Position numbers and translations under genes: made by a program. A DNA stretch of 50,201 bases from a virus (taxonomy: Duplodnaviria; Caudoviricetes). How positions within the stretch are numbered: the stretch's first letter is position 1; each line of letters opens with the position of its first letter. This document shows positions 1,086 through 44,833 of this stretch, in pieces. Below the pieces are notes generated by a model that saw only the letters and a program-made list of their open reading frames with translations, searched no databases and had not been told where the DNA came from. The stretch spans positions 1-50,201 of IMG/VR virus record IMGVR_UViG_3300012167_000014; one strand, given 5' to 3'.

Positions 1086-1620
1086 CTTTTCCACGCTTTT
1101 GATCGAAGATGGAAAGCGATCTGTGTTCCTTGATGGTGATAGGGGAACGGAGGCTATCTTTGTTCCAGCAACCACGATTGCGAAGTCGTTGGTTGTGGAC
1201 TATTCGATCGGACAACCTGCTCAAGAAGCTGAGGTTGCTGGACCGGGGATCTTCTTTGTTGAGGGAAAAGTTAGTAAGAAGGATATCCTCGACAGTCACT
1301 CAGAAGAGCTGAAGAAAGCTCAGAAGCTCCAGCATCAGTGGTGGGTCATCCTTGTGAGGTTGGCGGATGACCTTTGGACGAACAACCACAAGTACAGTCA
1401 GATCTCGGATCTCGAGCGGACTGCTTGTCGCTCACTCGGACTCAAGCGAGATTGGCTGGACGATTCACCGGACACAATCACTAAGTGTCCTTACTGCACG
1501 ACCCTCATCTCTACCTTCGCTATTGTCTGCTTCGCTTGCAGACTCCCAATCAAGATCGAGGAGTACAAGAAGGTACTCGAGGCTGTTGGGATGAACCCTG
1601 TTCAGACTCTGAACAAGTAA
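985..1620 (+). CDS. Hypothetical protein with C-terminal zinc ribbon (CPYC..CFAC)
   Basis: AGGAG SD before ATG 985; CxxC-x10-CxxC motif. Confidence 0.75.
   Translation: MQATVVSLVPWPIQEVKPGLYPQEYKIPAAVLPDFSTLLIEDGKRSVFLDGDRGTEAIFVPATTIAKSLVVDYSIGQPAQEAEVAGPGIFFVEGKVSKKDILDSHSEELKKAQKLQHQWWVILVRLADDLWTNNHKYSQISDLERTACRSLGLKRDWLDDSPDTITKCPYCTTLISTFAIVCFACRLPIKIEEYKKVLEAVGMNPVQTLNK
1599..1615. promoter_or_regulatory. 17-bp palindrome TGTTCAGACTCTGAACA
   Basis: Read directly; at the 3' end of ORF 985..1620, just upstream of the next SD. Confidence 0.75.
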
Positions 1621-1629
1621 GGAGCTTTC

Positions 1630-2298
1630 GTGTCACTTACAGCTGGAAACGTAATGGATGAGTCAGCTGCACTCTTGACTGATCCAGATAAGATTACGTT
1701 CACCTATGAAGCCCAGCTGCCATACCTCCGAATTGCTTGGAGGGAACTCGAAGAAGCTCTCGTAGCGAATGGGATCGCTGATGTGGAGGAGAAGTTCTCA
1801 CTTCCCTCAACGATCACAGCAAATACGACTGAGTGGGTCGGCCAGCCCATCGACCTCCTAGTTCCACTTTACATGTGGGAACGTCCAGTAGGAGGTCCAC
1901 TCTCGTCCTATGAGACAATGGAGGAAAGAGAATCTGATCCTTTCGAGATCCCTGTAGCAGAACTCGAGAACTGGTTCTTCAAGGAAGGAATCATCAAGTT
2001 CAAGGGGGCTACGACAGATCGAGAAGTCATCCTCAAGTATCAAAGAGAACTGATTACGATTGTTGGTCAATCAACAGTTCTTCCTGTCTTTGGTTGTGGT
2101 TCCTTTCTCTCTTTCAGAAACGCAGCTATCTTAGCTCGTTCAAGAGGGAATAGAAGTAGAGCAGATGATCTGGACGCAGATGCGACCACTCATCTTGGTG
2201 ACTCTATCTCTACGAAGGTCAAGAACGAGCAGGGAACACCTGTGAGACCGAAGCCTTATGGGTGGGCGAGACGAGGAAGACAGCGTTCCAATAGATAG
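1630..2298 (+). CDS. Putative head-tail adaptor/connector protein
   Basis: 222 aa, AAGGAG SD; size and position between capsid and nozzle; podovirus adaptor-like helical N- and C-termini. Confidence 0.55.
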   Translation: MSLTAGNVMDESAALLTDPDKITFTYEAQLPYLRIAWRELEEALVANGIADVEEKFSLPSTITANTTEWVGQPIDLLVPLYMWERPVGGPLSSYETMEERESDPFEIPVAELENWFFKEGIIKFKGATTDREVILKYQRELITIVGQSTVLPVFGCGSFLSFRNAAILARSRGNRSRADDLDADATTHLGDSISTKVKNEQGTPVRPKPYGWARRGRQRSNR

Positions 2299-2307
2299 GA
2301 GCTTGAA

Positions 2308-7073: not shown

Positions 7074-7074
7074 T

Positions 7075-7485: not shown

Positions 7486-8742
7486 GTGGCCCTCGTTGTA
7501 AGCACAGGAGATCCAGGTCAGTTAAGTGTTAATGAAAGTGCACACTTAACTAATGTGGTTTTCTATGGTTCTTGGGGTGGTAACGATTTCACACTTAAAC
7601 TCTTCTTTGATTACGGCATTGGTGCCTTTACTACTGAGTTTGCTTTTATCGGGAACTACTGTGATGTTAGTGGAAACTTTAATCAAACGATTGCACTCAC
7701 TTCAGATAAGAGCTATATCGTTCGAGCTAGACTTAACGCTTTCTTTAACTCTGGTTTTTGTATTGCAGAGACTTTCGTTGGTGTCGCAAATGCAGGCTTA
7801 AAGAGTTTTAAGTCCTGGGCAGTAACTCCCGTTAACTCTGTAGATGGTGTAGCATCATCTATCACAGCGACGGATGCATTACTTACTTTCTCGGACTTCA
7901 AAGTTAATACTGATGAGAGTACAGGAACGGCCCAGATTGAGTATCGTAAACAGGGTGACGCGACTTGGATTCCAGTAGGTTCAGCTTCGGGGACACTTTC
8001 AGGTTATGGAACTCAATCTCTTGCTCGTACTGCTTCTGGACTTCTGGGTTCTACTATTTATGAGTATCGTATTACTATCACTCGTACAACTTCTAACGTT
8101 ACAGTATGGTCTTCCTCCATCTATACATTTACAACTTCTGCCTCGGTTCCTACTATTCAAACTGATCCTGCTAGCTATTTTGCTCCTACTGCAGCAAGCC
8201 TTAACGGAACTGTTGATCCGAACTTTAATTCTACTACGTATTACTTTGAGTATGGATTGACAACTGGATATGGAACTACTACAGGCTCTCTTGGTCCTAA
8301 TAGTGGAGGTTCTCCACTTGGCTATCAACAACGTATTTATGGACTTCTGCCTACTACCCTTTACCACTTTCGAGCTGTTCTCTCGTATTCAGGTGGAATT
8401 CTTGTTGGTAGTGATAGGACCTTTACTACTACTGTTACAAGAGAGAATGGGAGTGTCTGGGTAGAAGGAACTGATCTTCATTGGATTAGTGATGGAGTAA
8501 ATTGGAGAAGCACAGGAGGAAGTTCAGGAGCCGTAGCGGGCAAAGTAGGTTCTATCTGGGTAGAGGGAAACGATCTTCATTACATTGATTCCTCGGGGAA
8601 TGAGCGGACTCTCGTAGGAGTCGATGGTGGAGTCGTAGCAGGGAAGATGGGTTCCCTCTGGATAGATGGAACTGTGAACAATAATCTCTACTGGATTGAT
8701 GCATCCAACCATAAGAGATCGCTTTTAGGTGTGAATCCATAA
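7486..8742 (+). CDS. Putative receptor-binding/fibre protein with two FN3-like domains and three C-terminal GS(V/I/L)W(V/I)(E/D)G repeats
   Basis: ASLNGTVDPN..TYYFEYG..GLLPTTLYHFRAV is FN3-like; Thr/Ser-rich; T-rich codon usage. Confidence 0.65.
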   Translation: MALVVSTGDPGQLSVNESAHLTNVVFYGSWGGNDFTLKLFFDYGIGAFTTEFAFIGNYCDVSGNFNQTIALTSDKSYIVRARLNAFFNSGFCIAETFVGVANAGLKSFKSWAVTPVNSVDGVASSITATDALLTFSDFKVNTDESTGTAQIEYRKQGDATWIPVGSASGTLSGYGTQSLARTASGLLGSTIYEYRITITRTTSNVTVWSSSIYTFTTSASVPTIQTDPASYFAPTAASLNGTVDPNFNSTTYYFEYGLTTGYGTTTGSLGPNSGGSPLGYQQRIYGLLPTTLYHFRAVLSYSGGILVGSDRTFTTTVTRENGSVWVEGTDLHWISDGVNWRSTGGSSGAVAGKVGSIWVEGNDLHYIDSSGNERTLVGVDGGVVAGKMGSLWIDGTVNNNLYWIDASNHKRSLLGVNP

Positions 8743-8744
8743 GG

Positions 8745-8761
8745 TGTTCACAGTCTGAACA
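8745..8761. promoter_or_regulatory. 17-bp palindrome TGTTCACAGTCTGAACA
   Basis: Intergenic, immediately before the lysozyme SD. Confidence 0.75.
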
Positions 8762-8770: not shown

Positions 8771-9244
8771 ATGGATATCCCACGATTGATCGAACGTCTC
8801 AAGCTAGATGAAGGCTGGAGTGCTGTCATCTATATTGACGATACAGGGAATCTCACGATAGGTTTTGGCTACAACCTGGGGAAGCTTATCCTTCCTGAGG
8901 GTATAGACCTTAAGCTTGTTTCAGTGAAACCTGTTAATGGGATATCCAAGGAAATAGGAGAACTTCTTCTAAGTGGTTTCTTAATGAAGCTCCTTATTGA
9001 TCTTACGATCAAGCTTCCTTGGCTTAAAAACCTCGATGATGTACGTCAAAGAGTCATTGCGAATATGGCCTATAACCTAGGTGTAGATGGGTTGCTGCTC
9101 TGGCCAATATTCCTACGGCAGACGAGAAATGGTGAGTGGCTAAAGGCTGCACACAATATGCGCTCCACTCGCTGGTTTCGTCAAGTGGGATCTCGTGGAA
9201 GACGCTTGGCGAACATGATGGAAACGGGTAAGGACCCAGAATAA
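8771..9244 (+). CDS. Lysozyme/endolysin (glycoside hydrolase family 24, T4-lysozyme-like)
   Basis: Catalytic E-x8-D-x5-T pattern in DEGWSAVIYIDDTGNLTIGFG, plus NMAYNLG and S.W..QVG.R. Confidence 0.88.
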   Translation: MDIPRLIERLKLDEGWSAVIYIDDTGNLTIGFGYNLGKLILPEGIDLKLVSVKPVNGISKEIGELLLSGFLMKLLIDLTIKLPWLKNLDDVRQRVIANMAYNLGVDGLLLWPIFLRQTRNGEWLKAAHNMRSTRWFRQVGSRGRRLANMMETGKDPE

Positions 9245-17679: not shown

Positions 17680-17696
17680 CGTTCAGGGAGTGAACA
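17680..17696. promoter_or_regulatory. 17-bp palindrome CGTTCAGGGAGTGAACA
   Basis: Intergenic; the spacer contains the GGGAG SD of ORF 17701. Confidence 0.7.
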
Positions 17697-21262: not shown

Positions 21263-21263
21263 A

Positions 21264-23275: not shown

Positions 23276-23510
23276 ATCTCCTCGACCAGGTTATCCGACG
23301 GGTTCCACAGTGAAAACAGGGAGAATCCCACCTATTGACCAACTTAAGTTTATTAAGTTGTTCGAGTAGCTTCCGAACGCTCTGGGAAGTGCTACCAATT
23401 CCCTTTGCGATCTGAGCTGCCGTTTGAAGAGCGGAAACTTTTCCGTTCTCTAAGTAATCAAGGATTGATTTTTGTTTCTCCAGTCTTAAGTCGTTCCCTA
23501 ACTTGCTCAT
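23259..23510 (-). CDS. Small winged-helix DNA-binding protein
   Basis: ILDYL..TAAQIAKGIGSTSQSVRKLLEQL..LV wHTH pattern, with CFHC in the wing. Confidence 0.6.
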   Translation of the reverse strand: MSKLGNDLRLEKQKSILDYLENGKVSALQTAAQIAKGIGSTSQSVRKLLEQLNKLKLVNRWDSPCFHCGTRRITWSRRYETKR

Positions 23511-24726
23511 AGAAAGTCCTATCCCTTTCAATACCTATCCAGCGGCGAGAGAGACGTTTGCAGGCTTCAAGGTGAGAGCCGGAGCCAGCAAAAGGATCTA
23601 GCACGATAGCACCTTCGTTCGTGCAATCCTCAACCAGTGCCTCAATAAGCTCAACTGGTTTCTCGTTGGGGTGGGTAAGACAGACAGGAGCAAGTGGAGG
23701 AAAGACGAAGACGGAAGACTGCTGTGTGGACTCTATGAGTGAGGGAGTCCCCTTGACTGCGAGTAAGATAAGCTCGAAGTCTCTGGAGTATTCCCAGGGT
23801 CTGGCTCCTTTACTGAGAACTACTCCATGGAGTCGACTATCTCTGAGTTCTTTCTTGACCCAGATCAGAGGAGTCTTGCTAACCGTAAAGCCGAAGGTAG
23901 CCAGATTCCTACTGTAACTACGATAGTCCTCCAGACCACAGAACAGATAGACGAAAGAGTCTGGACGCAAGACTCTAAAGACTTCCTTGAAGACTGGAAC
24001 AGTCTCATCATCTCGGGTGAGCTTGGCATCGATGTACCTCAACCAGGGTGGATCGGTGATGCAGGCGTCAAAGACTCCATCAGGGAAGCGCTTGAGGATA
24101 TCGACGGAGGAACCATTGTAGACCTGATCTACCTTGAAGTCTACTGGACGTTCGGCATCCTCCTCTGCCTCGATACGTCTCGCTGCGTTCCTGACCAAGC
24201 GGACGGCGGTATCTCGATCCTTGATATTACGTAGGGACGCATCACGTTTGACCGCGTTATCGAGCATGACCGCTTCAGACACGAATCCGAGAGAAATCCC
24301 AAGCTGAGCAGCAGTATCACGCATCGACCAGCCCGGGTTCTCGCGCGAAGCCTTTCCTCTCTTAGCTTCGCTTGCGCCAAGGTCCATCTGCTTCGTCGCG
24401 TGCCAAGATGATACAAGCTCACAGATTTCCCACCAGGGGAGATTGGTTCGCTTGAGATTTTCTTCAATGGTAACAAGCGTGATCTCCTTCTCATCCCCCA
24501 TTACGACTCGGCAGGGAAGCTCTGAGATGCCGAGTAGAGAGACGGCTTTGAGCCGCTTCTTCCCAGCGATTACCTTGAATCTACCGTTCAGAGCCTGAAC
24601 GGTAATGGGATTGAGCAACCCTCGTTCTTTGATCGACTCGGAGAGTTCTTGTATGAACTCACTCATCTCCAAGTCGTCACAGTCGATGAGGGACAGCTCG
24701 ATGTTCTGTGTAGGGAGTTCCTTCAC
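23458..24726 (-). CDS. ParB-like CTPase domain + HTH + beta-class N6-A/N4-C DNA methyltransferase fusion
   Basis: GTG start 24726 overlaps the DHH stop, with GGAGG SD. ELSESIKERGLLNPITV..IAGKKRLKA and EENLKR (ParB); SMRDTAAQLGISLGFVS (HTH); ITDPPW, HPNEKP, VLDPFAGSGS (MTase). Confidence 0.9.
   Translation of the reverse strand: MKELPTQNIELSLIDCDDLEMSEFIQELSESIKERGLLNPITVQALNGRFKVIAGKKRLKAVSLLGISELPCRVVMGDEKEITLVTIEENLKRTNLPWWEICELVSSWHATKQMDLGASEAKRGKASRENPGWSMRDTAAQLGISLGFVSEAVMLDNAVKRDASLRNIKDRDTAVRLVRNAARRIEAEEDAERPVDFKVDQVYNGSSVDILKRFPDGVFDACITDPPWLRYIDAKLTRDDETVPVFKEVFRVLRPDSFVYLFCGLEDYRSYSRNLATFGFTVSKTPLIWVKKELRDSRLHGVVLSKGARPWEYSRDFELILLAVKGTPSLIESTQQSSVFVFPPLAPVCLTHPNEKPVELIEALVEDCTNEGAIVLDPFAGSGSHLEACKRLSRRWIGIERDRTFYEQVRERLKTGETKINP
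24585..24601. promoter_or_regulatory. 17-bp palindrome CGTTCAGAGCCTGAACG inside the ParB domain coding sequence
   Basis: Arms extend to TACCGTTCAG/CTGAACGGTA. Confidence 0.7.
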
Positions 24727-31512: not shown

Positions 31513-31513
31513 G

Positions 31514-31669: not shown

Positions 31670-31685
31670 GACATACCTCCCTTGG

Positions 31686-31702
31686 TGTTCAGACTCTGAA
31701 CA
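31686..31702. promoter_or_regulatory. 17-bp palindrome TGTTCAGACTCTGAACA
   Basis: Intergenic, after the SNF2 helicase stop. Confidence 0.75.
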
Positions 31703-31713
31703 GGAAACTCTAC

Positions 31714-33639: not shown

Positions 33640-33641
33640 AA

Positions 33642-34569: not shown

Positions 34570-35036
34570 TAGCCTTTCTCGGGAGTGGATGTACGGTCCT
34601 GTTCAGACTCTGAACGGATAAGGTCACGAATTACGTCATTTTGAATCTCATCCAGCGTCTTAGGCTTTGGACGAGCTTCCATCTCTTTCTCATATTCCTC
34701 TTCGACTGCGTCTTTCGCTTCTCTTGGAGGAAGTAAAGCAAAGATGCCCTTAAGTGAGATATCTTTCGCTACTGGCGAGAGTCGAGCATCTAAATTGGCT
34801 TGAACCTGCTCTTCACAACGCCCACAACGAATCTTTGCCATCAAGAGATCCTTCCCCGTGATGACAAACTCGTTTCCACAAGTATCATAAAAGCAGCGAA
34901 CCGTTCGCCCAATCATGAGTTCCTTGTTGTAGATACAGTTAGGACAGTCGAGGCACTTCCAGAGCTCTGTGCCTTTCTTGGTCGTCATCCTTCGGTATCG
35001 GTGATGTTCGCACCGAGCACCCTTCTTTAACGTCAT
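34569..35036 (-). CDS. Cys/His-rich (zinc-binding) hypothetical protein
   Basis: CEHH, CLDCPNC, CFYDTC, CGRC. Confidence 0.65.
   Translation of the reverse strand: MTLKKGARCEHHRYRRMTTKKGTELWKCLDCPNCIYNKELMIGRTVRCFYDTCGNEFVITGKDLLMAKIRCGRCEEQVQANLDARLSPVAKDISLKGIFALLPPREAKDAVEEEYEKEMEARPKPKTLDEIQNDVIRDLIRSESEQDRTSTPEKG
34600..34616. promoter_or_regulatory. 17-bp palindrome TGTTCAGACTCTGAACG
   Basis: Inside the 3' end of ORF 34569..35036. Confidence 0.7.
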
Positions 35037-35235: not shown

Positions 35236-35532
35236 TTAGTTTGAGCGGATTCCCTGAGCTTCATGGAGGATGGCAACGGCCTCAGAGAGACTACACTGTG
35301 CTCTCTCCCTAATTCGTGTCACGCATGAGATTGAGCCCTTTTCGTTGTAGATCTTCACCTCCTCTGCTTCGAGCTTGTGGGATGCAACCAGGGGCTTCTT
35401 GAATCCCTTACGCTGAGGACATCCATCGACATTGTGAGCACGATGTGCCTTTGTGTAGGTCTCAGGTGTCATCGACATGATCTCTTCCTGAGTGTCAGGG
35501 AAGCTCATGCCGCACAACGGACAGTTGACCAT
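35236..35532 (-). CDS. Zinc-knuckle protein with C-terminal ribosomal bL12 CTD-like motif
   Basis: CPLCG at the N-terminus; ISCVTRIRERAQCSLSEAVAIL resembles the I.AIK..RE.TG.GL.EAK motif. Confidence 0.5.
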   Translation of the reverse strand: MVNCPLCGMSFPDTQEEIMSMTPETYTKAHRAHNVDGCPQRKGFKKPLVASHKLEAEEVKIYNEKGSISCVTRIRERAQCSLSEAVAILHEAQGIRSN

Positions 35533-35825
35533 TAGCTCTCCTTCACTACGCCGATGATCAGCTCGACGCTCGTCGTCTTCGGGGTCAATCCCCACTTCAG
35601 GAAGAAGTAGGCGAGGTCGTGGGCAAGCTGCATCTCTGCCGCCATCGCTGTGGCTACTTCCCTATCAGAGAGGTTACCATCCTTCGCGAGGAGGTTGAGA
35701 GCGGTTGAAACGAGTACGATCGTCACAGCTCGCTGTTCCTGTGAGCGCATACCCACGGGGGTCTTCAGGATAGGCTTCCCAAGCCTACCAATGAGGTCGA
35801 GTGCTGCTCTGGTATCGGGGCTCAT
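35532..35825 (-). CDS. Hypothetical protein
   Basis: 97 aa, coupled on both sides. Confidence 0.55.
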   Translation of the reverse strand: MSPDTRAALDLIGRLGKPILKTPVGMRSQEQRAVTIVLVSTALNLLAKDGNLSDREVATAMAAEMQLAHDLAYFFLKWGLTPKTTSVELIIGVVKES

Positions 35826-36166
35826 GAGTTCAGCTCCAAGCCCTCATCATGATCCCGATCCACTCGTGTACTGATACGAGCGCCAGGAAGACGGCGGTAG
35901 ACCCCATTCCAGGGAGAAAAGCCCTTTCGCAGATACCACTTCTCCAGTTGTTCATAGGAGAGCCCATTGGAAGGACTAATCTCGAGGAAGAGCGTGATGT
36001 TATCCTTATCGGCATCTGCAAGGATCGAGTCCAAAAGCCTTGACCCTACACCCTTGCCACGGCTTGCGATAGGGACGTTGATCCTTGTGAGGATCATCCC
36101 GTGACCATAGTAGTCACAGAGGTCCGCTGTCGAGTTCGACTCACGGTCATAGTAGTAGCTCTTCAC
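35822..36166 (-). CDS. GNAT-family acetyltransferase
   Basis: INVPIASRGKGVGSRLL acetyl-CoA motif A, WYLRKGF; AAAGGA SD. Confidence 0.85.
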   Translation of the reverse strand: MKSYYYDRESNSTADLCDYYGHGMILTRINVPIASRGKGVGSRLLDSILADADKDNITLFLEISPSNGLSYEQLEKWYLRKGFSPWNGVYRRLPGARISTRVDRDHDEGLELNS

Positions 36167-36289
36167 ACTATCCTTTCTTAGCGAGAAGGGTTGAAACCAG
36201 GGAAAAACCCGTATGCGCCCAAGGGGTCACCCTGCATTCCCCCTGCAGAACCCGGGCTATCCCCCTGCATTCTGCAGGCGCCCCTCTTT

Positions 36290-36590
36290 CGCGTAAACCC
36301 TTTGGAATCAATCACTTAGCGCCTCTAGGGGAGCTAGTACCCGCCCTCCCCCAACCCCAATATAGGCTTGGGGAAGGCCAATGTCAAGTCTCATTTTGGG
36401 GGAAACCGACAATCCGGGGAACCCGAGGGAATTTTCTAATTGCCTTATTAGTTCTTAAAAACACAAAAAAAAAATAGAACAACAACACGAAAAACCGCAG
36501 TAAAGTCGGGGTACGAATGAGCGTACAAACACGGTCGGGGGAGGGTGGGGGCTAGAAGGCTAAGTGCTTTATTTCCAGTGAGTTAGACCC
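36290..36590 (+). other. Candidate replication origin/control locus
   Basis: A-rich core (about 36430-36500) flanked by inverted, related 25-bp dyads at 36294-36318 and 36561-36585; no long ORF. Confidence 0.45.
36359..36387 (-). promoter_or_regulatory. Sigma70-type early promoter (TTGACA-17-TATATT)
   Basis: The minus strand reads TTGACA ttggccttccccaagcc TATATT, about 190 nt upstream of the GNAT gene. Confidence 0.8.
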
Positions 36591-36715
36591 GTCCTGACCC
36601 CCTGTAGACTGCCGGGGTAATGCCCGGTGATTGCACGGGGAGTGCTCGGGAACCCAATGGGAGATAAATGCTTCAGGGCTGAAGTATGCTATCGACGGAA
36701 AAAAGAGGCCAACCT

Positions 36716-36732
36716 TGTTCAGGGTCTGAACA
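36716..36732. promoter_or_regulatory. 17-bp palindrome TGTTCAGGGTCTGAACA
   Basis: In the large non-coding control region. Confidence 0.75.
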
Positions 36733-36825
36733 GCAATAAGACGGTTGGAATTGACAGGCGTATCCAGCTCTTAAGCGGTTGGATAGGAGGGCGGGAGTTG
36801 GAGTGCTGGCCTGAGCCCTAGACGC

Positions 36826-36864
36826 ACGAAACCCTGGGAGGGTGCTCTCTCCCAGGGAGTCGTG
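36826..36864 (-). terminator. Stem-loop downstream of gene 36881..37399
   Basis: CCCTGGGAG/CTCCCAGGG 9-bp stem followed by TTTC on the minus strand. Confidence 0.5.
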
Positions 36865-36880
36865 TCCGGTAGGTTGTCAG

Positions 36881-37399
36881 TTACGCGTCGTCTTCCGTCT
36901 CATCGTCTTCCGACTCCGCAGCCTCGCGCATGAGCTTGGCTGCGGCCAGGGCCTTCGCCTCGCTCTTGAACCGACCCTGCTTCATCAGCAACGCGGCCAG
37001 TCGCTTGTCCGCAGCCTCGGGGTCCACGAACCCGGATTCGTAAGCCACCCGGATCTTGCTGCGCCGTTGCAGCCCGTAAGCGTAATCCAGGAGCCCCGCG
37101 AAGGGGTTGTCCGCCGGGACCTCGTCACCGTCGTCATTCTTGACCGTGCCCTTGTTGGCCTCGATCAAGCTCCAGAGCTGCGCGGCAGCTTCCGGGGTGT
37201 CGAGCACGAACTCGACCTTGTTGAACGGCACGAACACCGTGTCTCCCTTGTTGGGCACATTCTTGACGGTGACACTCACCGCCTCGCCGTTTGCCTTCTT
37301 GGACACGAACCGTGCCAGGCCCGCCTCGACTGCCTTGATTGCCCAAGGCGTGTGAACATCCGCGTCTGCGACGGAATCCAACGTCTTCTTTTCGGTCAT
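36881..37399 (-). CDS. Hypothetical early protein with acidic tail
   Basis: 172 aa, high GC3; first gene on the leftward arm. Confidence 0.75.
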   Translation of the reverse strand: MTEKKTLDSVADADVHTPWAIKAVEAGLARFVSKKANGEAVSVTVKNVPNKGDTVFVPFNKVEFVLDTPEAAAQLWSLIEANKGTVKNDDGDEVPADNPFAGLLDYAYGLQRRSKIRVAYESGFVDPEAADKRLAALLMKQGRFKSEAKALAAAKLMREAAESEDDETEDDA

Positions 37400-37513
37400 G
37401 GTCCTATCATCCTTTCAAAGAGCGTCTGCGCGAGCGTTCGCCCGCTGTCTACAAGGTGCGGCCCGGCAGCCAGAATAGCAAGGGAAATATGCCCGACCCG
37501 CAAATAAACTTCT

Positions 37514-37576
37514 GTGTCAAAACAGACACAGCCCCCCGTCCAGGCCCGGCAAACTTTCCCGTGTCAAAACGCACAC
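37514..37576. repeat. Direct repeat GTGTCAAAAC-NN-ACAC x2 (37514-37529, 37561-37576)
   Basis: Read directly; each copy contains TTGACA on the minus strand. Confidence 0.6.
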
Positions 37577-37799
37577 ACTCACTCGTCGATGCGATCCGTA
37601 AACTTGGATTACTTAACCCAAGGGGATGGATAGTCCGATCCAACCCCCCGGACGGACCAGAGCGGGTCCCATGTCGGCCGGGGGGACGGATCGTGCAACG
37701 CTCGCGTTTTCACTTTCTCCAAATCAAAATCTGGTTGGAATTCTCTACCAAGGAATGGGTCCCATATTCTCATACCTCGATTCGCTACCAAGGATCAGG

Positions 37800-37816
37800 T
37801 GTTCATAGTCTGAACA
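37800..37816. promoter_or_regulatory. 17-bp palindrome TGTTCATAGTCTGAACA
   Basis: About 43 bp upstream of the late promoter -35 box. Confidence 0.75.
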
Positions 37817-37858
37817 GATGTTTATTTGCTGTTCAACCGGGAAACCTTGTTCAGGGCC

Positions 37859-37887
37859 TTGACAAAAATGAGCCACGGGCGTATCTT
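37859..37887 (+). promoter_or_regulatory. Sigma70-type promoter for the late operon (TTGACA-17-TATCTT)
   Basis: TTGACA 37859-37864 and TATCTT 37882-37887, 70 nt before the terS ATG. Confidence 0.7.
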
Positions 37888-37956
37888 CTCAGTGGGGGCT
37901 TTACGCCTCTTTGCCGGATCGAAGGGTTCACGGGGCTTACGCCCCAGAGAATACTC

Positions 37957-38541
37957 ATGGAGATCTCGAACGAAGACGCCGAAGCCCTCCTTTCTAACCC
38001 ACGTAATGGGGGTCCCCTCTTCTCTCGTTCTCTAATCTCTGAGAAAGAAGTCACCTATGAGCCTCTCCACAAGGGTACGAGGAACGGCGGCAGAGAAGTC
38101 CCGCCTCTTATGCGGGAACTCATCGGAGTCTCTGCACATAGAGACACTCTTGCTAACACAGCTGGAGCCTTTGACGTTAGTGTAAGTACCGTAGCACAAG
38201 CGAAGAAGGGGAATGTGGGCGTAGCCCGTCACGATGCGGATCTTGCGTCCCGTATCGAGAAACAGGTCGGGAAGGATGCAAAAGCAGTCAAGGATCTTGC
38301 GCTTGAGAGGCTTGCAGGGATGTTCGCCTCTGCGATCACTCAAGACAAACTCGACGCTATCCCGAAGGTTAGGGAAGCAGTCACCGTCGCGAGGGAACTT
38401 GCAGGCATCGCGTCCTCACTTACGGAAAAGAAGGAAGGTGGGAACGTAGCGGTCTTCATCCAGTATCCTCGGATAAAGGATGAAAAGGAATACGATGCAG
38501 TCGATCTTATCCACATTCCCGATAAGAAGAAGGTCGACTGA
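37957..38541 (+). CDS. Putative terminase small subunit
   Basis: Immediately upstream of terL with TGATG coupling; HTH-like TAGAFDVSVSTVAQ. The upstream extension in the ORF track is probably non-coding. Confidence 0.55.
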   Translation: MEISNEDAEALLSNPRNGGPLFSRSLISEKEVTYEPLHKGTRNGGREVPPLMRELIGVSAHRDTLANTAGAFDVSVSTVAQAKKGNVGVARHDADLASRIEKQVGKDAKAVKDLALERLAGMFASAITQDKLDAIPKVREAVTVARELAGIASSLTEKKEGGNVAVFIQYPRIKDEKEYDAVDLIHIPDKKKVD

Positions 38542-40196
38542 TGGAAGTCGAGGTGGTCGGGGATGCTGTAGAACGCATCGAGTTCAAGCCTTTCCCCAAG
38601 CAGGCTGAGTTCCTCAGTCTTCCTACTTCAATCAAAGAGGGTTTCTTCGGCGGAGCTGCAGGACCGGGTAAGTCGTGGTGCTTACTCATGGACCCTCTTA
38701 TGAGACGCCTGCACGAACATCCACGGTTTCACGGTATCGTATTCAGGGAGACTTTCAGACAGCTGGAAGAGTCTCTCGTGTTCGAGTCTCAACACCTATA
38801 TCCCCTAGTAGGTGGGCGTTACAATGGTCAAGATTACTGCTGGACGTTCCCTTCCGGAGCTAAGATTCGCTTTAGTTACTTAGCTCGGGATGAGCAGGTC
38901 TATGACCATGACACAGCTCAGTACAACTACGCAGCTTACGATGAGCTGACAGCGTTTACCCGCTTTAGGTATATGTACATCGTCCATTCGCGCGTACGCA
39001 CGACTGTTAAAGGATTACCCGCGTATGCGAGATCTGCCTCTAACCCACTGGGGATAGGACACTCCTGGGTTAAGGAACGCTTCATAGCCCCAGCTAAAGA
39101 CGGTGGCAAGATCATTCGTGAGATCATGCCCGATGGAGCCGTAAACAAGCGGATATTCATCAAGGCTAGGGTCACGGATAATCCTATCCTGATGAAGGAG
39201 AACCCAGAGTATATTAACTCTCTGATGCTTCTCCCTGAGGCAGAGAAACGCTCCAAGCTCTATGGAGACTGGGACGCTATTGCTGGGCAGGTCTTTACAG
39301 AGTTCCGCTCAGAACTCATGCCTGATGAACCTTCCAATGCTCTCCACATAATCAAGCCTTACGTCATCCCCGATTACTGGCCCGTTATCCTCTCTGTTGA
39401 CTGGGGATACGATGCCATGACGTTCGGTGGGTTCTTCGCTATTTCCCCAGAAGAAAGAGTCATACACTGCGAAGAATTCTCGGCAGTGCAGACTAAGATC
39501 AAGGTTTGGGGAGCGGATCTGGGCGTAATGGCTCGTCGCTACCCTAATCTGAAGACTCCAATCACCCTAGATAAGTCAGCCTGGGCAGAACGGGGGGATG
39601 AGCAGACTATTGCTGAGCAAGTAGAGGATGCGATAGGTTTGCCTGTTGAGAAGAGTGATTCCGACCGTGTAGGTGGGAAGATGCTCTTCCATGAGTACCT
39701 CCGGTTTCGGCAGAAGCCACCTAGGTATGTTCCTCCTGGAGGGTATGACCCTTCCATAGAAGAAAAGCTGTATCGTATCAAGGGAGAAAAGGCTGCTTTA
39801 GAGTATCGACACGTCTTCGATCCAGAGCCGCCTGAAGTGAATCTCCCTAAGTTACAGATTTTCGATACCTGTAAGCTTCTTCCCGAAGCTCTCATCTCTT
39901 GTGTGTCCAATCCGGATAAGCCAAACGACGTACTTCCCTTCCCCGGTGATGATCCTTACGATGGTTCTCGCTACGCCCTGAAAAGGGTAGCGCGTTACTT
40001 CGAAGAATCGAAGGAAGGACATAGGGAGTTCATCAAGAAGGATCAAATAATCGAGAATCTCCGTAAGACTGGCGATATGACCGCCTTTTACAGAGAAATG
40101 GAGAACCTTGAAGAGCAAGAGCTTTCGAGAAATACTGGGGTTAGGCGGTACAACACGTACGGCTCCCCTCGAAGATCCTTTAGAGCGTCTCGTTGA
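38541..40196 (+). CDS. terL: Terminase large subunit
   Basis: GGAAGPGKS Walker A, YDELT Walker B, SASNPLG, LYGDWD, SVDWGY RNase H-like nuclease, DDPYDGSRYAL. Confidence 0.95.
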   Translation: MEVEVVGDAVERIEFKPFPKQAEFLSLPTSIKEGFFGGAAGPGKSWCLLMDPLMRRLHEHPRFHGIVFRETFRQLEESLVFESQHLYPLVGGRYNGQDYCWTFPSGAKIRFSYLARDEQVYDHDTAQYNYAAYDELTAFTRFRYMYIVHSRVRTTVKGLPAYARSASNPLGIGHSWVKERFIAPAKDGGKIIREIMPDGAVNKRIFIKARVTDNPILMKENPEYINSLMLLPEAEKRSKLYGDWDAIAGQVFTEFRSELMPDEPSNALHIIKPYVIPDYWPVILSVDWGYDAMTFGGFFAISPEERVIHCEEFSAVQTKIKVWGADLGVMARRYPNLKTPITLDKSAWAERGDEQTIAEQVEDAIGLPVEKSDSDRVGGKMLFHEYLRFRQKPPRYVPPGGYDPSIEEKLYRIKGEKAALEYRHVFDPEPPEVNLPKLQIFDTCKLLPEALISCVSNPDKPNDVLPFPGDDPYDGSRYALKRVARYFEESKEGHREFIKKDQIIENLRKTGDMTAFYREMENLEEQELSRNTGVRRYNTYGSPRRSFRASR

Positions 40197-40400
40197 GAGG
40201 CTCGAGCTGGATCTTGCACACGAACGGTCGCTTAACGCTCAGTTGGTTGCACTCATGACGCCATCTTACAAGACGCTTCCGGTGATTCCTGAGGACTCTC
40301 CCTTGATTTCTCAACAGCCGGAGGCTATTTCTCGAGGCGTCCGTACTTTGAGTCACATGAAGCGTCGTGCAGCCGACATACTTCGATCAAAGGAGAAGGA

Positions 40401-41537
40401 ATGAGGGACTTTTTCATAGCACTTCTTATAGGTTCCATGATGGCGGGACCTATGCAGTCATGTGAAGGTAATCCTCCTCCTAAGGAGGTGTGCGATGCGT
40501 GCAAAGTCTGCGAAGCGAACCCGACGATGGAAGGTTGTCCTCTTCTTATTGCTAGCGGCGTTTGCGCCCGATGTGGCAGCATTCCACCTCCTTCCACGTC
40601 CACGACAACTACAACCACTACAACCTTCAATCCACAGCCGACACCAACTCCAACCCCCATTCCGACTCCAACTCCTAATCCCAACAACTGTACCAGACAG
40701 GTTCAACCTGCTACATGCTCTACACCAATGCCTGGGGAATGGAAGGGAGACGTTAATGCTGCCCTGCATTCAGCCAGTGGGTGTCCGATCAATCAGGTTT
40801 GTCGAGTTCTCAACTGGAGACAAACGATTGTTCGGACCATGGAGCTTCTTGAGGCCAATGGGTACTGCGTGTCCTTCGACATCGACAGCGGGAACTGTTG
40901 GTTTTTCGCTCCGAATGGAGAGTGTCTCCGTAGGGGACTCGGTTCGGAGATGGGTGTACGGAAGGGATTGTCGAAGACAGAATTCTATCAGCCCATTACA
41001 GCTACAGAGAACACGCGTTGGGCTGATCCACGTTCAATCTGTCGGCCAGCCTTCGATGAAGAGACTCTTGAGCAGACAAGAGCCCATCTCAATGTTGGAC
41101 CAGAACCTGTCCCTACACCTACTCCAGGGCCGACGCCAATTCCTCCTCCCTCAGGGGGTCTTTGCACCAATCCAACCCCAGGACCACTTGCGAAGTGGGA
41201 GGTTAAGGTCCATGTTCGTGGACCCAACTGGACGACGTTGGATTCTACAGCGTTGGTTGGTCCCGACGCAATGTATTGCTCGCAGATCGGATACACGGAT
41301 GGTCGACGCTTTTGTCCTCCACGCACGGAGGGGACCGCAGAAGCAATCATCCGGCAGTGCTTACTCGACGTGGTCGGTCAGCCTCCCTTCCCCGTCTGGA
41401 AGTGGAATGGCAGTACGACCTTGCCTGAGGGAATACAGCATGATGACAATCCTTACCACCTCCTCGTAAGGCCCTGGTTGCACGGGACGGCTGAGGTGTG
41501 TGGTTCTAACGGCGTTTGCGGTGAGCTGGTTCTATGA
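40401..41537 (+). CDS. Exported Cys-rich protein with Pro/Thr linkers (possible lipoprotein)
   Basis: Signal-like MRDFFIALLIGSMMAGPMQSC; more than 20 Cys; PTPTPTP linkers separating three domains. Confidence 0.7.
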   Translation: MRDFFIALLIGSMMAGPMQSCEGNPPPKEVCDACKVCEANPTMEGCPLLIASGVCARCGSIPPPSTSTTTTTTTTFNPQPTPTPTPIPTPTPNPNNCTRQVQPATCSTPMPGEWKGDVNAALHSASGCPINQVCRVLNWRQTIVRTMELLEANGYCVSFDIDSGNCWFFAPNGECLRRGLGSEMGVRKGLSKTEFYQPITATENTRWADPRSICRPAFDEETLEQTRAHLNVGPEPVPTPTPGPTPIPPPSGGLCTNPTPGPLAKWEVKVHVRGPNWTTLDSTALVGPDAMYCSQIGYTDGRRFCPPRTEGTAEAIIRQCLLDVVGQPPFPVWKWNGSTTLPEGIQHDDNPYHLLVRPWLHGTAEVCGSNGVCGELVL

Positions 41538-41860
41538 GCTTCATTCTCACCCGACAGCTTTATCGTATCGAACGGAAACTGGACTTCGTATTACGCCAAT
41601 TGGGGCGTGAACGTGAGGAGGATGCAGAGATGGCAGCAGTTCTTGCAGACGTTCAGGCTGCAGTGGCAGCGAACACGACTCAGATTGGCAGCGTTGTCGA
41701 GCTGATTCGTGGTTTCGCTGACCTTCTGCAGGAAGCCATCGACCGAGGAGCTTCCCCTGCGGAACTCCAGGCTCTGGTCGATGAGCTGAGAGCGAGTGAT
41801 CAGGCGTTGGCGGAGGCAGCGGCCACGATTCCCACTGCCCCTCCGGCGCCTCCGGCGTAA
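41534..41860 (+). CDS. Ala-rich coiled-coil hypothetical protein
   Basis: 108 aa; possible second start MAAVLAD at 41630 behind GAGGAGG. Confidence 0.6.
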   Translation: MSFILTRQLYRIERKLDFVLRQLGREREEDAEMAAVLADVQAAVAANTTQIGSVVELIRGFADLLQEAIDRGASPAELQALVDELRASDQALAEAAATIPTAPPAPPA

Positions 41861-41884
41861 ACAACCAAGCCCCCAGGGAAGGAG

Positions 41885-41914
41885 TGGGGGGTGGGAAACT
41901 ATCCCCCATTTTTT
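41885..41914 (+). terminator. Rho-independent terminator
   Basis: TGGGGGGTGG-GAAA-CTATCCCCCA stem with GNRA loop, followed by T6. Confidence 0.7.
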
Positions 41915-41916
41915 GA

Positions 41917-42240
41917 ATGACACCAGAAGTGGTCGATGGCTGGACTCCAGATAAAGTAACTCAACTTCTTGTTGCAGTCTTCGCAGGTTTGGGTATTCTT
42001 CTAACTGCAGCGACTGGAATGGTGGTTGCTATCTGGAAACTGCGGAGTACGACGCAGGAAGTCCATGCTGCGGTTAATGGGGCCAACAGATCTCTACTTC
42101 TACGTGTCGATAGGCTTACTTCTAGGGTTGCTGACTATACGGGAAAGCCTATTGACATCGAAGAATCTGAGGCAGCCCATGCTGAGGTAGTGGCTAACGC
42201 TGCGCTTCCTCAGAATCTGCCAAAGGCAGGAGAACCGTGA
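41917..42240 (+). CDS. Single-TM membrane protein (holin-like candidate)
   Basis: LLVAVFAGLGILLTAATGMVVAIW TM helix followed by a soluble domain. Confidence 0.5.
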   Translation: MTPEVVDGWTPDKVTQLLVAVFAGLGILLTAATGMVVAIWKLRSTTQEVHAAVNGANRSLLLRVDRLTSRVADYTGKPIDIEESEAAHAEVVANAALPQNLPKAGEP

Positions 42241-42476
42241 CTGACGAAATTCGTCCAATACCGAATACGACATTTGCCATCCGGGACTCCGTGGCTCGAC
42301 GTCTGGATGGGCTCGACTTCAAGACCGTCGCATTCGTGGCTCATGGGGATCTTAACGGGGATATCAAGACATCTGTGATGGTCCACATTGGTGGTGGGTG
42401 GTCCTTCGCAGGATATCTCGATAAGCCTCGTCATTCGTCCTTGGAAGGTGGAGCGGAGTTAATATTCGCCAAATGA
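42237..42476 (+). CDS. Small beta-strand-rich hypothetical protein
   Basis: 79 aa, coupled on both sides. Confidence 0.55.
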   Translation: MTDEIRPIPNTTFAIRDSVARRLDGLDFKTVAFVAHGDLNGDIKTSVMVHIGGGWSFAGYLDKPRHSSLEGGAELIFAK

Positions 42477-44833
42477 GCACCTTTCCTCCAGACGTCCAAG
42501 ATCCTGAGATGGATATGCCAGAGGAGCCTGTTGATCCTATGGTCAATCCTGAAATGGCTCCGCCTTTGGGCTTGGATCCAGAAATGGGAATACCCTCCCA
42601 GCCCCCGACCGAACCACCTGTAAAGCAGTTCGGTATCGGAGAGTCTGTCGAATTGACAGACGAGGAGAAGACGGCCCTAAAGTACATACGGGATACTATT
42701 ACTCGTCCGGATGATGAGATCCGTGAGAGAATGACTCCCGTTTGGCAGATGTACGAGAACTACTGGAGGGGTCTGCAGGATGTCATTTACGACTCCGTAT
42801 CGCAGTCCTTCCTATCGGCCTCGGGTGTGCTCAAGTCCGCTGGAGAGCTGGAAGATACGTACATTGGCTCGAAGATCGTCAACGTCTATCGGGCACATGG
42901 TGAATCAATCGCTGCAGCTGTTAGCGCTGGTACGCCAACAATCACGTTCTTCCCGGAAGATGCAGATCAACCCAGCGATATCACCACGGCTAAGACTTAT
43001 ACGGTTGCCTCTGAGTTCGTGGCGGATGACAACGATTCAAAACTTCTCCATCTTCGGGCACTCTACACGAGGTGGAACCAACCGTTCGTAGCGTACTACA
43101 ATACGTACGTCTACGATGAGGAATACGGAACCATCGAGAAGAATCGCTACGGTATTCAGGAAGTTGATATTCCCGAAGCCTTCTGTCCAAGCTGTGGTGA
43201 GGATCTTCCTGTTCAGACTCCGAACAGCATGTGTCCGGACTGTAATGTTGAAGCGGAGACCACAGTAGTAACGAATCTCATTCCTAAGATTGAGGAGGTC
43301 GTACAGATCCCCAAGGGGAGAGAAGTAATTGAGGTCTATGGTCCACGTCATGTACGTGTACCATATAACGTAAAGGATCTCAAGCAGTGTGGCTATCTTA
43401 TCCTCGAGACGGAGCATCACTGGGCCGCCCTAGTCACTCTCTATCCTCAGCTTGCAGAAGTTATCACAAGTGGGTCTTCTGCTCAATCCTCTACGGCGGA
43501 TCAAGCTAGGAGAAAGAGAATCGCGATTGAGGGATCTGAACCTGACATGGACCAGCGAACGCTGGATCGTGCTTGGTTCAGAACCTGGACCTTCAACCTA
43601 GTAAAGGATGAAGAGGTTCGGGCCTCTTTGAAGGTGAAGTTCCCACATGGAGTGCAGTGTACCTTCGTCGATGAAGAGTATGTCGAGGCATACGATGAAT
43701 CGATGGATGATCACTGGACCCTCCTGCCAGATCCGTATGCCGAGCATATCCATGGAGATCCACTCGGGAAGCCTGAAATTCCCATCCAGGATATGACCAA
43801 CGATACGGTCCAGCTTACGTTGGAGACGATCCTCTTTGGAATCGTGGAAACGTTCGCTGATCCTGGTGTACTTAACTTTGATAAGTACAAGGATGCAGTA
43901 AAAGCTCCAGGAAACACCTTCCCTGCGAAGCGTCCTGCTGGAATGAACCTGGATGCTGGCTTCCACCAACCTCGTCCTGCGACGTTGAGCGATAACGTTG
44001 AAGTCTTTCGTCAGGCCCTCGACTCCATGGGTCAGTTCGTCACAGGAGATTCTCCTGGGATCTTTGGTGGACCCTTGGCGAAGGGTTCTTCGAGGACGGC
44101 GGATGAGTATAGACAGGCGAAGCAGGGTGCTCTTCAACGTTTGAGCATCGTTTGGTTTGCACTAAACGTAGCTTGGGCTCAGGTGATGAAGAAAGCTGTT
44201 AACGAGCTTCGGATTCATATGAGATTCCAGGGAGAGGACATCAAGTTCGTCAAGGAGGCTGGAAAGGGATTCACGAACGTTTGGATCAAGCTCGCGGATA
44301 TTGACGATGGGCGTATTGGTCGTGTCCGAGCTGAAGCATCCGAGCAGTTCCCTCTTACGAGTGAGCAGCAGAGGGGTGTGCTCATGGAACTGATCCAGAC
44401 TGCACGTCCTGAACTCACGCAGTTCATCTTCGCTCCTGAGAACATTGGTGAGTTTACTCGAATCCTTATCGGGTTGAATCGCTTCAAGATCCCTGGAGAA
44501 GAGGATCGAGAGTATCAGCTCTCTGAGATTCAGGAGATGATGAGTGGGATGCCTGCAGAGATTGATCCCATGATCGACAATCATCAGGCACATGCTATGG
44601 TCATCCAGTCCTGGGCTGCTAGCGAGGATGGTAGGACGGCCAAGAAGATTAACCCAATGGGTTATCAACTCGTCATGGAACATATGCAACAGCATGTGTT
44701 TATCCTTCAGCAGGCTATGGCGCAAGCTGCTGCACAAGAGGCTGCTCAAGCGGCAGCAAGCGCTCCTCCTCCTAAGGGTGGACAGGCTCAGAAAACCGGT
44801 GCGGCAGAACCGCCCCCAACGATGCAAGGATAA
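42473..44833 (+). CDS. Portal protein (P22-like size) with inserted zinc ribbon
   Basis: 786 aa downstream of terL; CPSC..CPDC insertion; C-terminal DNHQAH..HMQQH and Gln/Ala-rich tail. Confidence 0.8.
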   Translation: MSTFPPDVQDPEMDMPEEPVDPMVNPEMAPPLGLDPEMGIPSQPPTEPPVKQFGIGESVELTDEEKTALKYIRDTITRPDDEIRERMTPVWQMYENYWRGLQDVIYDSVSQSFLSASGVLKSAGELEDTYIGSKIVNVYRAHGESIAAAVSAGTPTITFFPEDADQPSDITTAKTYTVASEFVADDNDSKLLHLRALYTRWNQPFVAYYNTYVYDEEYGTIEKNRYGIQEVDIPEAFCPSCGEDLPVQTPNSMCPDCNVEAETTVVTNLIPKIEEVVQIPKGREVIEVYGPRHVRVPYNVKDLKQCGYLILETEHHWAALVTLYPQLAEVITSGSSAQSSTADQARRKRIAIEGSEPDMDQRTLDRAWFRTWTFNLVKDEEVRASLKVKFPHGVQCTFVDEEYVEAYDESMDDHWTLLPDPYAEHIHGDPLGKPEIPIQDMTNDTVQLTLETILFGIVETFADPGVLNFDKYKDAVKAPGNTFPAKRPAGMNLDAGFHQPRPATLSDNVEVFRQALDSMGQFVTGDSPGIFGGPLAKGSSRTADEYRQAKQGALQRLSIVWFALNVAWAQVMKKAVNELRIHMRFQGEDIKFVKEAGKGFTNVWIKLADIDDGRIGRVRAEASEQFPLTSEQQRGVLMELIQTARPELTQFIFAPENIGEFTRILIGLNRFKIPGEEDREYQLSEIQEMMSGMPAEIDPMIDNHQAHAMVIQSWAASEDGRTAKKINPMGYQLVMEHMQQHVFILQQAMAQAAAQEAAQAAASAPPPKGGQAQKTGAAEPPPTMQG
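43210..43226. promoter_or_regulatory. Near-consensus palindrome TGTTCAGACTCCGAACA (1 mismatch) in the portal gene
   Basis: Read directly. Confidence 0.6.

Follow-up and report, generated by a model that had tools for sequence, protein, structure and literature searches.

What reads a palindrome that recurs nine times around a phage genome, and to what end, is the question raised by the viral record IMGVR_UViG_3300012167_000014 (Duplodnaviria; Caudoviricetes), all 50,201 nt of which were analysed and are called the window below. The palindrome is the 17-bp element (T/C)GTTCA-N5-TGAAC(A/G). The gene of interest in the same genome encodes a protein, here called ParB-HTH-MTase, in which a ParB N-terminal domain (NTD) and helix-turn-helix (HTH) are followed by a DNA methyltransferase (MTase). 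A sequence-only reading of the window had taken the palindromes for parS-like loading sites of that protein. From comparison with related genomes it appears, on balance, probable that the nine palindromes serve in cis as sites for this protein of the phage, and its binding to them is regarded as likely.

Exact GTTCA-N5-TGAAC is found eight times in the window, at 1600, 8746, 17681, 24586, 31687, 34601, 36717 and 37801. The same eight copies had been listed before, with starts one base lower because the flanking T or C was included. In 100 dinucleotide shuffles the mean expectation was 0.03 and none of the 100 reached eight, which bears out the earlier claim that the copies are far above chance. 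When up to one mismatch is allowed there are 11 matches, compared to 1.9 expected from dinucleotide shuffles. The one at 43211, noted previously at 43210, is real and is kept in every relative; those at 9852 and 43576 are no more than chance would give and are absent among the conserved slots. No palindrome is more over-represented in this genome (corrected p 3e-11), the expectation in this and the other palindrome scans being first-order Markov. The spacer is constrained as well, with a consensus, T-GTTCAGA-n-TCTGAAC-A, that is a 7-1-7 palindrome. The centres vary (GACTC, CAGTC, GGGAG, GAGCC, GGGTC and TAGTC), GACTC being present in four of the nine sites. The record is complete and circularly permuted and was treated as a circle, because the two ends of the window adjoin each other in the colinear relative G001. 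The gap lengths previously given around that circle were obtained again, and clustering at the control region is true for 34601, 36717 and 37801. The claim of regular spacing stood only in part. In the window, G001, G007 and G008 the largest inter-site gap is smaller than for random points (p 0.008, 0.0003, 0.004 and 0.04, respectively), although these four genomes share inherited slots and the tests are therefore not independent; in other clades the claim was not supported.

Relatives were found through the terminase and then taken as whole records, and slots were compared among them by gene order, the partial records G004-G006 being used only where a slot is covered. In genes they are approximately 65-70% identical to the window at the nucleotide level, and the intergenic DNA cannot be aligned. 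Nine of nine slots are filled in G007, G008 and G001, eight of those in G001 by an exact copy or by the 1-mismatch form seen in the window; in G004-G006 a copy is present wherever the slot is covered. Site D (Table 1), within the ParB-HTH-MTase gene, reads GTT CAG GMT CTG AAC in five close orthologues, fixed at synonymous positions while adjacent codons drift. In more distant orthologues GTTC-N7-GAAC is present at the same place under the peptides VHRMN, VRPAN, VRPLN, VHELN, VRSVN and VRNTN, and in the loci L128 and L153 the palindrome is in a different reading frame. Because the slots outlast the intergenic divergence, and Site D survives changes of both peptide and frame, the nine sites are judged to be selected as DNA. 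The single mismatch of Site I exists because a Pro codon forces it.

The element might instead act as an RNA or single-stranded DNA hairpin, for example as a processing, translational or priming signal between genes. Many copies are just upstream of ribosome-binding sites, the 5-bp stem and 5-nt loop are proportioned like those of small regulatory hairpins, and the symmetric changes between clades retain pairing. However, eight of the nine folds, computed in 35-nt contexts, are no stabler than shuffles (z -1.5 to +0.4), and at 17681 the hairpin is absent from the minimum-energy fold. Within each genome the arms are invariant, with no independent compensatory drift seen, and in some clades they are asymmetric (GTTCG...TGAAC), which would weaken a stem. 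There are no matches to Rfam families in the window, and the motif tracks a gene for a DNA-binding protein, as described below. A hairpin is thus considered very improbable.

The association with the gene was determined in two sets of relatives, 187 relatives of the ParB-HTH-MTase and 491 of the capsid having been found altogether. Among 61 loci with a full-length orthologue of the ParB-HTH-MTase (38-64% identity) GTTCR-N5-YGAAC occurs 104 times in 920 kb, with at least one site in 53 of the 61; many of these loci are near-copies and the counts are therefore not independent. In 64 control viral loci, which match the methylase domain only, there are five occurrences in 942 kb, close to the random expectation, and three of the loci have one. 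The second set was defined by the capsid and was blind to the methylase gene; 25 near-complete records were requested, of which 23 were searched. Those with the gene (n = 9) contain 9, 9, 8, 11, 7, 6, 6, 4 and 0 sites, and of the 14 without it 13 contain none and one, G002, contains two. The relation proposed earlier, in which carriers of the ParB-HTH-MTase have the palindrome and relatives of the lineage without the gene mostly do not, is thus seen. On the best capsid tree the presence of the gene needs three changes (three to four in bootstraps). A sister pair with 93/89 support consists of G018, with the gene and seven sites, and G030, with neither gene nor sites; these genomes are too diverged to align (one high-scoring segment pair, 387 nt) for site decay to be followed. 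As a separate observation, G020, which has no ParB-methylase, contains six copies of TGTCC-N8-GGACA within 7 kb (35505-42293; corrected p 2e-8), a confined arrangement more like a local set of operators than a dispersed one.

Such an association could arise if some other dimeric DNA-binding protein, of phage or host, bound the sites and the ParB-HTH-MTase were linked to them only by shared ancestry or linkage. Most of the phage genes are without a known family, G011 has the gene but no sites, and a single origin of the gene is compatible with the capsid tree. Nevertheless, when all open reading frames (ORFs) of 19 genomes were clustered, no other cluster was found in nine of nine motif-bearing genomes and in none of nine genomes lacking the ParB-HTH-MTase, the next best being two structural genes (nine of nine vs two of nine). 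The 172-aa protein of the control region (36881-37399) is limited to the window's clade and the motif family is wider, and the small ORF at 23259-23531, encoding a putative winged HTH (wHTH) protein, is a singleton. The covariation of helix and base, together with the parallels in Desulfofustis phage and Corndog described below, favour a ParB-type HTH, and another binder seems improbable to us.

The wHTH protein and a host LexA-like regulator had been named before as alternative owners of the sites. Dyad symmetry would suit operators of either, and GTTC/GAAC arms recall some LexA boxes. The wHTH ORF, however, has only a sub-threshold match to MarR_2 (E 0.007) and no homologue in any relative, and a motif conserved among relatives therefore cannot be explained by it. 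Since the presence of the motif follows the phage gene across relatives, a host LexA-like box is unlikely too. Four of the nine sites are inside genes, at 1600, 24586, 34601 and 43211 on the present gene map, which agrees with the earlier count. A tyrosine integrase (PF00589) was not matched in the window, serine recombinases and repressors not having been searched for specifically, and with no integrase found there is no sign of lysogeny. Operators of this kind are scarcely credible.

The earlier annotation of the ParB-HTH-MTase is correct on Pfam, fold and motif evidence. The ParB NTD is matched by PF02195 (E 1e-10) and the methylase domain by PF01555 (E 1e-23). Foldseek aligns residues 1 to approximately 200, in about 200 columns, with Noc and ParB structures truncated at the C terminus, one of them the Noc-DNA complex 7ol9. 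The closest solved matches of this part in sequence and fold are 4umk, 7ng0, 7nfu, 7ol9 and 7bm8, and KorB is matched weakly by sequence (8qa8, E 0.009). A ParB-type HTH is seen in the model, with helices at 135-142 and 146-161; the Pfam HTH_ParB model gave no match to the 422-aa protein. In 10 orthologues G55, R58, A61, E89, N90, L91 and R93 are invariant, and these include the box II Arg and the box III E-N-L-x-R. Box II, AGKKRLKA, aligns to AGERRLRA, and box III, EENLKR, to ENIQR/ENLQR, of the solved 4umk, 7ng0 and 1vz0. The remainder, residues ~200-422, is a beta-class DNA methylase of approximately 220 aa for which the best folds are M1.HpyAVI, CcrM and TTHA0409. It has the D-P-P-(Y/W) catalytic motif and the F-x-G-x-G S-adenosylmethionine motif in the beta order, with D225, P226, P227 and W228 (DPPW) and F379, G381 and S382 invariant.

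A homodimer model of the protein scored 0.69, compared to 0.00 for the best control, a mark reached by 20 of 30 solved homodimers and by one of 23 single chains. Contact agreement between runs was at least 97% and the partner pLDDT at least 78. The modelled interface is made by methylase-domain residues 258-341 and may echo solved methylase dimers; because beta-class methylase dimers have already been solved, the score may reflect likeness to known complexes. The model suggests that the methylase domain, which occupies residues ~200-422 where the ParB C-terminal dimerisation domain is not present, could stand in for that domain. The N-terminal ParA-binding motif (L/F/I)G(K/R)G(L/F/I), in the form given in the available text of PMC12704722, is absent from the 422-aa translation. 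A search of the window for a ParA partner gave no match to PF13614 and, for PF01656, only a sub-threshold 13.6-bit P-loop match in the AAA_24 gene. Since there is no ParA, this is not a partition system. Small ORFs of 80-122 aa, homologous to residues ~96-187 and thus to the HTH only, were observed in relatives without the ParB-methylase. The one in G002 adjoins the DNA polymerase, as the full gene does in the window, and one of the two G002 motif matches (9988) is inside it.

The half-site differs between clades, being GTTCAGA in that of the window, GTTCAYC in G013/G018 and GTTCGCC in G010/G012/G022, and the recognition helices (...SLGF[VI]SEA..., ...GKTSQDL... and ...GP[IL][AS]EDL..., respectively) differ in step. 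When 34 helix classes were compared, half-site base 5 was A in 30 of the 30 half-sites that belong to S-Q-D helices, and in those of (S/A)-E-D helices it was G 57 times and A 33 times. As a general rule Gln prefers adenine and Glu prefers cytosine. Trees for the covariation were built both with and without the HTH columns. On the tree without them the Q/E label changes four times, which gives three independent pairs on well-supported branches (four on the best tree). The base follows the helix in 2.8 pairs on average and the reverse direction is seen in none. The proposal that the motif would vary with the recognition helix is thus supported, Gln/Glu tracking A/G at base 5, in a small number of pairs. 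It was observed post hoc that the siteless long loci have unusual helices, S-D-D-L in G011/L030, S-E-N-L in L112 and S-E-A-I in L150.

A distant orthologue with a dispersed palindrome of its own, as the sequence-only reading would have it, is provided by Desulfofustis phage LS06-2018-MD01. Its protein has the same architecture at 27% identity and a different helix, SSKSSISRDL, and its 44-kb genome, of 34% GC, contains six copies of GTCCCAAnTTGGGAC (corrected p 5e-15). According to the record annotation these are at or near gene boundaries, and their dyad flanks are wider. In the record (OP947158.1, L289+L290) the six palindromes extend to a dyad of approximately 25 bp (...GCTATGTCCCAAnTTGGGACATAGC...), and the methylase has D-F-P-Y in place of DPPW.

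The second parallel is Corndog, an unrelated actinophage of Cluster O, in whose 70 kb there are 34 copies of TGTTCGGNNNCCGAACA, the function of which was given as unknown in 2015 (PMC4351075). One third of the Cluster O repeats are inside genes and most are away from promoters. A role in transcription initiation was judged unlikely by the authors, who named the ParB-like gp90 as one of three possible binders and did not, in the available text, tie it to the repeat (PMC4351075). No later account of the function of the Cluster O repeat was found in the literature. By hhalign, gp90 matches the NTD and HTH start of the window's family with a probability of 92% (E 7e-7); tblastn of the NTD and HTH against GenBank phages did not recover Corndog, and only the profile comparison did so. 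In the 502 aa of gp90 no methylase domain was found. The Corndog copies fit GTTCR-N5-YGAAC and three of them are in the 4.5 kb around gp90, for which the Corndog sequence TGTTCGGTTTCCGAACA is a candidate site.

Table 1. Positions of the palindromes, the ParB-HTH-MTase gene and related HTH-only ORFs. Positions are those of the window unless a relative is named.
Feature	Sequence	Position	Strand	Location and remarks	Relatives with the slot filled
Site A	T-GTTCAGACTCTGAAC-A	1599..1615		last codons (V-Q-T-L-N) of gene 952-1620, 15 nt before next start codon	G001, G007, G008, G004, also G032, G022
Site B	T-GTTCACAGTCTGAAC-A	8745..8761		28-nt gap between gene 7486-8742 and lysozyme-like gene 8771-9244	G001, G007, G008
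Site C	C-GTTCAGGGAGTGAAC-A	17680..17696		23-nt gap 3' of 1777-aa gene, 5 nt ahead of ATG 17701	G001, G007, G008
Site D		24585..24601		within ParB-HTH-MTase gene, codons 43-47 (V-Q-A-L-N, box I region)	
Site E	T-GTTCAGACTCTGAAC-A	31686..31702		gap after SNF2 helicase gene (stop at 31714); 17 nt ahead of minus-strand Shine-Dalgarno sequence and ATG at 31669	G001, G007, G008, G006, G005
Site F		34600..34616		3' end of gene 34569-35036 (-), ~30 nt before next minus-strand start	G001, G007, G008, G006, G004, G005
Site G		36716..36732		non-coding region 36312-36880, ~330 bp upstream of predicted leftward early promoter 36387-36359	G007, G006, G004, G005
Site H		37800..37816		divergent non-coding region between gene 36881-37399 (-) and terS-like gene 37957-38541 (+)	G001, G007, G008, G006 (one arm altered), G004, G005
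Site I	T-GTTCAGACTCCGAAC-A	43210..43226		one mismatch; inside 786-aa portal-like gene (V-Q-T-P-N)	identical 1-mismatch form in G001, G004, G005, G006, G007, G008; nearby copy in G016, G017
Degenerate copy	TGTTCAGGGCCTTGACAA	37848..37865		over -35 hexamer of predicted rightward promoter 37859-37887; lone GTTCA at ~37831	
ParB-HTH-MTase gene		23458..24726	(-)	422 aa; GTG start at 24726 inferred from orthologues	
HTH-only ORF		G002:9940-10179			
HTH-only ORF		G003:4788-5156			
HTH-only ORF		G025:2762-3022			
HTH-only ORF		G027:21740-22021			
HTH-only ORF		G030:31381-31689			

Three of the sites (8746, 17681 and 31687) are in intergenic gaps of 23-44 nt, two (1600 and 34601) overlap the final codons of a gene and precede the following start by 15-31 nt, two (36716 and 37800) are in long non-coding stretches of the control region, and 24586 and 43211 are deep inside genes. 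A promoter scan, which covered the region 31000-39000, predicted two promoters, a strong leftward one that is sigma-70-like, at 36387-36359, and a rightward one at 37859-37887, the latter upstream of the terS-like and terL genes. These positions bear on the possibility that the ParB-HTH-MTase, or its ParB part, is a global regulator or organiser like KorB, with the sites acting as operators or anchors and the methylase being incidental, or active only at the sites. The early/late control region has a cluster of three sites, and the -35 element of the rightward promoter is overlapped by a degenerate copy. Five sites are 5-31 nt ahead of start codons, and the slot positions have been kept over deep divergence. 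The methylase-less gp90 of Corndog shares the motif family, and KorB itself is a ParB-family CTPase clamp which represses from distal operators (PMC11790492). On the other hand, Sites A, B and C are in 9-28-nt gaps of long co-oriented runs of late genes and D and I deep in genes, which leaves no room for promoters. Relatives survive without gene and sites, which would be odd for an essential circuit, and a role in transcription initiation was doubted by the Cluster O authors for their own repeat (PMC4351075). A role of the sites in regulation or organisation alone is therefore held to be unlikely.

If the ParB-HTH-MTase does bind the sites, a dimer held together by its methylase domains would read the two half-sites, TGTTCAG(A), with its two ParB-type HTHs. 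By analogy with ParB, Noc and KorB, the sites would then be entry points from which nucleotide-gated NTDs keep the enzyme on phage DNA, probably with spreading, and the methylase would accumulate on the phage genome in preference to host DNA; those copies that are close to the early/late control region may have an effect on transcription as well. That the sites are entry points for nucleotide-gated spreading which delivers methylation to phage DNA is put forward tentatively. The wider suggestion, that the phage marks its own genome by means of ParB-methylase clamps loaded at dispersed parS-like sites and modifying in cis, is speculative to the same degree.

The methylase could also be connected to the palindrome if the palindrome were its own rare target, with the HTH setting the specificity and only about nine places being marked epigenetically, for instance to time replication or packaging. 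The methylase domain is minimal, at ~220 aa, and in the model its segments 229-237 and 294-314 are of low confidence. The centre GACTC, of the GANTC type, is present in four of the nine sites, and CcrM, the site of which is GANTC, is among the closest solved folds. The centre is nevertheless variable among the sites, a CTPase-fold domain with invariant box II/III residues would be needless for a fixed-site enzyme, and the even spacing in the window's clade is left unaccounted for. Marking of the sites themselves is accordingly thought improbable.

Several observations weigh against binding and spreading by the ParB-HTH-MTase. In the 45 kb of G011 the gene is intact (E 6e-206) but no site is present, and an alternative motif in that genome, TGAGA-N1-TCTCA, with three copies, was not significant after correction. 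The loci L112 and L150 (19-21 kb) also have the gene and no site, and in the Microcystis phage Mel-JY34 and a Coprococcus phage, which have distant ParB-methylases, no significant palindrome was found. If only its strongly supported branches are counted, the capsid tree requires a single change in the presence of the gene, and shared ancestry could be behind much of the association of gene and motif. The covariation test is underpowered, with so few pairs that the sign test gives p 0.25. Even spacing of about 7 kb is limited to the window's clade, p for the largest gap being 0.08-0.65 in the other clades. Box II reads G-K-K-R and not G-E-R-R. Fusions of this kind with an N6N4-methylase were among 50 proteins chosen for testing and, in the available text, are not among the named nucleoside triphosphate (NTP) binders (PMC12704722). 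The degenerate copy over the -35 hexamer fits regulation equally, and since gp90 is without a methylase, methylase targeting cannot be the general role of the motif family. The proposal of parS-like loading sites for the ParB-HTH-MTase is thus supported in part: co-occurrence, covariation and the distant parallel favour the palindromes as putative sites of this protein, whereas loading itself is conjectural; the likeness to parS is loose, the tiling belongs to one clade, and G011 is an exception.

In the control region the gene at 36881-37399 (-), flanked by Sites G and H, is real. Its 172-aa product has a strongly acidic C-terminal tail, is 49-52% identical in relatives, belongs to no known family and is found only in the window's clade. 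The plus-strand ORF 36842-37507, which overlaps it, is probably spurious. A 23-nt C-rich/G-rich inverted repeat (36334-36356 and 36533-36555, 83% complementary) encloses both an A-rich run (36460-36476) and the region of the predicted early promoter, and could be an origin or regulatory structure. A search of PHROGs with 10 control-region proteins assigned no family.

Two sites are in unusual coding surroundings. In the gene for the 786-aa portal-like protein (42473-44833 (+)), Site I is flanked by two Cys-x-x-Cys pairs (...CPSCGEDLPVQTPNSMCPDCN...), and around 43190-43260 a zinc-ribbon-like insert has DNA that doubles as palindrome carrier. Site A is at the junction of the second and third of three successive genes of near-equal length (224, 222 and 222 aa; 411-2298 (+)), which follow the capsid gene and are conserved lineage-wide. 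The 1777-aa ORF ahead of Site C (12344-17677 (+)) has no Pfam family. Only its C-terminal ~700 aa are kept in close relatives, it was not detected in more distant ones, and its product is presumably a tail or tape-measure-like protein.

Elsewhere in the window, Pfam identifies a split family-A DNA polymerase with an N-terminal UDG domain, a DUF3987 primase/helicase, a DHH phosphoesterase, an AAA_24 ATPase, a PD-(D/E)XK nuclease, an SNF2 helicase, a large terminase subunit and a lysozyme-like protein; most structural and early genes are unassigned to a family. The polymerase is in two ORFs (20198-22919 (-)), the N-terminal one comprising the UDG and exonuclease domains and the start of the polymerase. 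Between the halves there is a 109-aa ORF (20954-21283), the homologue of which is elsewhere in G001 (~11548-11796), and which may be a mobile insertion. No tRNA genes were found in the window, and 20 kb of it gave no Megablast match to GenBank phages. The nine public runs which carry the phage, all of them stored as contigs and none listed as RNA, come from freshwater sediment. Alignment of four runs showed no places at which molecules begin or end; among the rows listed for one diverged strain, indels flank Sites G and H and leave both intact, from which no conclusion is drawn.

Among known systems, Noc has sites dispersed over the genome, and parS is often in or beside parB, as Site D is in the ParB-HTH-MTase gene. 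The KorB operator is a palindrome with an odd centre and parS is 16 bp. The window site, at 17 bp with an odd centre, differs from parS in this respect. The protein resembles Noc and ParB over residues 1 to ~200, with the box II and III motifs conserved, and differs in having neither the ParA-binding motif nor the ParB C-terminal domain; its role would not be segregation or nucleoid occlusion. KorB of RK2 likewise combines an NTD of the CTPase fold with an HTH, on a mobile element of ~50-60 kb with several dispersed palindromic sites, and it loads at OB operators and slides as a CTP-gated clamp (PMC11790492). It is, however, a repressor which has a dimerisation domain at its C terminus and works with a ParA partner and a KorA lock, whereas the window protein ends in a DNA methylase and has no ParA. 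The stoperators of Cluster A are also short operators present in many copies and dispersed in a phage genome, often in short intergenic gaps. Unlike the window sites, which are symmetric, they lack symmetry and follow the direction of transcription, and in their temperate phages the prophage repressor binds them (PMC4351075). Neither an integrase nor a repressor is evident in the window.

Other comparisons are with phage proteins. Fusions of a ParB-CTPase fold with an N6_N4 methyltransferase, which share the PF02195 + PF01555 architecture of the window protein, are phage-enriched and among the commonest phage-specific ParB architectures, and the 2025 survey which described them left their function open, giving it as unknown and 'perhaps anti-defense' (PMC12704722). 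Neither an HTH nor a cognate DNA site is mentioned for them in the available text; the window protein has an HTH and a candidate palindrome. The comparative link of such a fusion to a dispersed palindrome, as suggested by the sequences, appears to be new relative to the available text of that survey, and no paper linking ParB-methylase fusions to cognate dispersed sites was found in the literature. ParB-like activators of phage thymine dioxygenases are another case in which a ParB homologue of phages is coupled to an enzyme that modifies DNA after replication. They differ in being separate proteins with no obvious DNA-binding domain, which keep the C-terminal dimerisation domain and for which, in the available text, no cis sites are described (PMC13229309). 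If the reading proposed here is true, CTP-switch clamps would extend from segregation and repression to enzyme delivery, and quick protection by phages of their own DNA, without methylation of the host, would be suggested.

The repeat of Cluster O is like the window palindrome in being 17 bp, with outer arms TGTTC...GAACA in the GTTCR-N5-YGAAC frame, and in being dispersed over genes and gaps without being tied to promoters. It too is found in a phage not evidently temperate (PMC4351075), together with a ParB-like protein homologous to the NTD and HTH start of the window's. The differences are in number, 34 copies in 70 kb compared to nine in 50 kb, in the inner bases, which are GG/CC, and in gp90 being without a methylase. 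More than 30 copies, denser in the early leftward operon, are a feature of Cluster O which the window, with its nine, does not share. The window and about 60 related contigs nevertheless connect the ParB-methylase fusions with the Cluster O-type repeat, and offer a 17-bp site with a candidate binder, a residue that may set the specificity, a second class of specificity and natural controls in which the gene is lost. Should the reading hold, the same pairing of HTH and TGTTCR-N5-YGAACA would explain the Cluster O repeats and provide a function for the ParB-methylase fusions that are widespread in phages.

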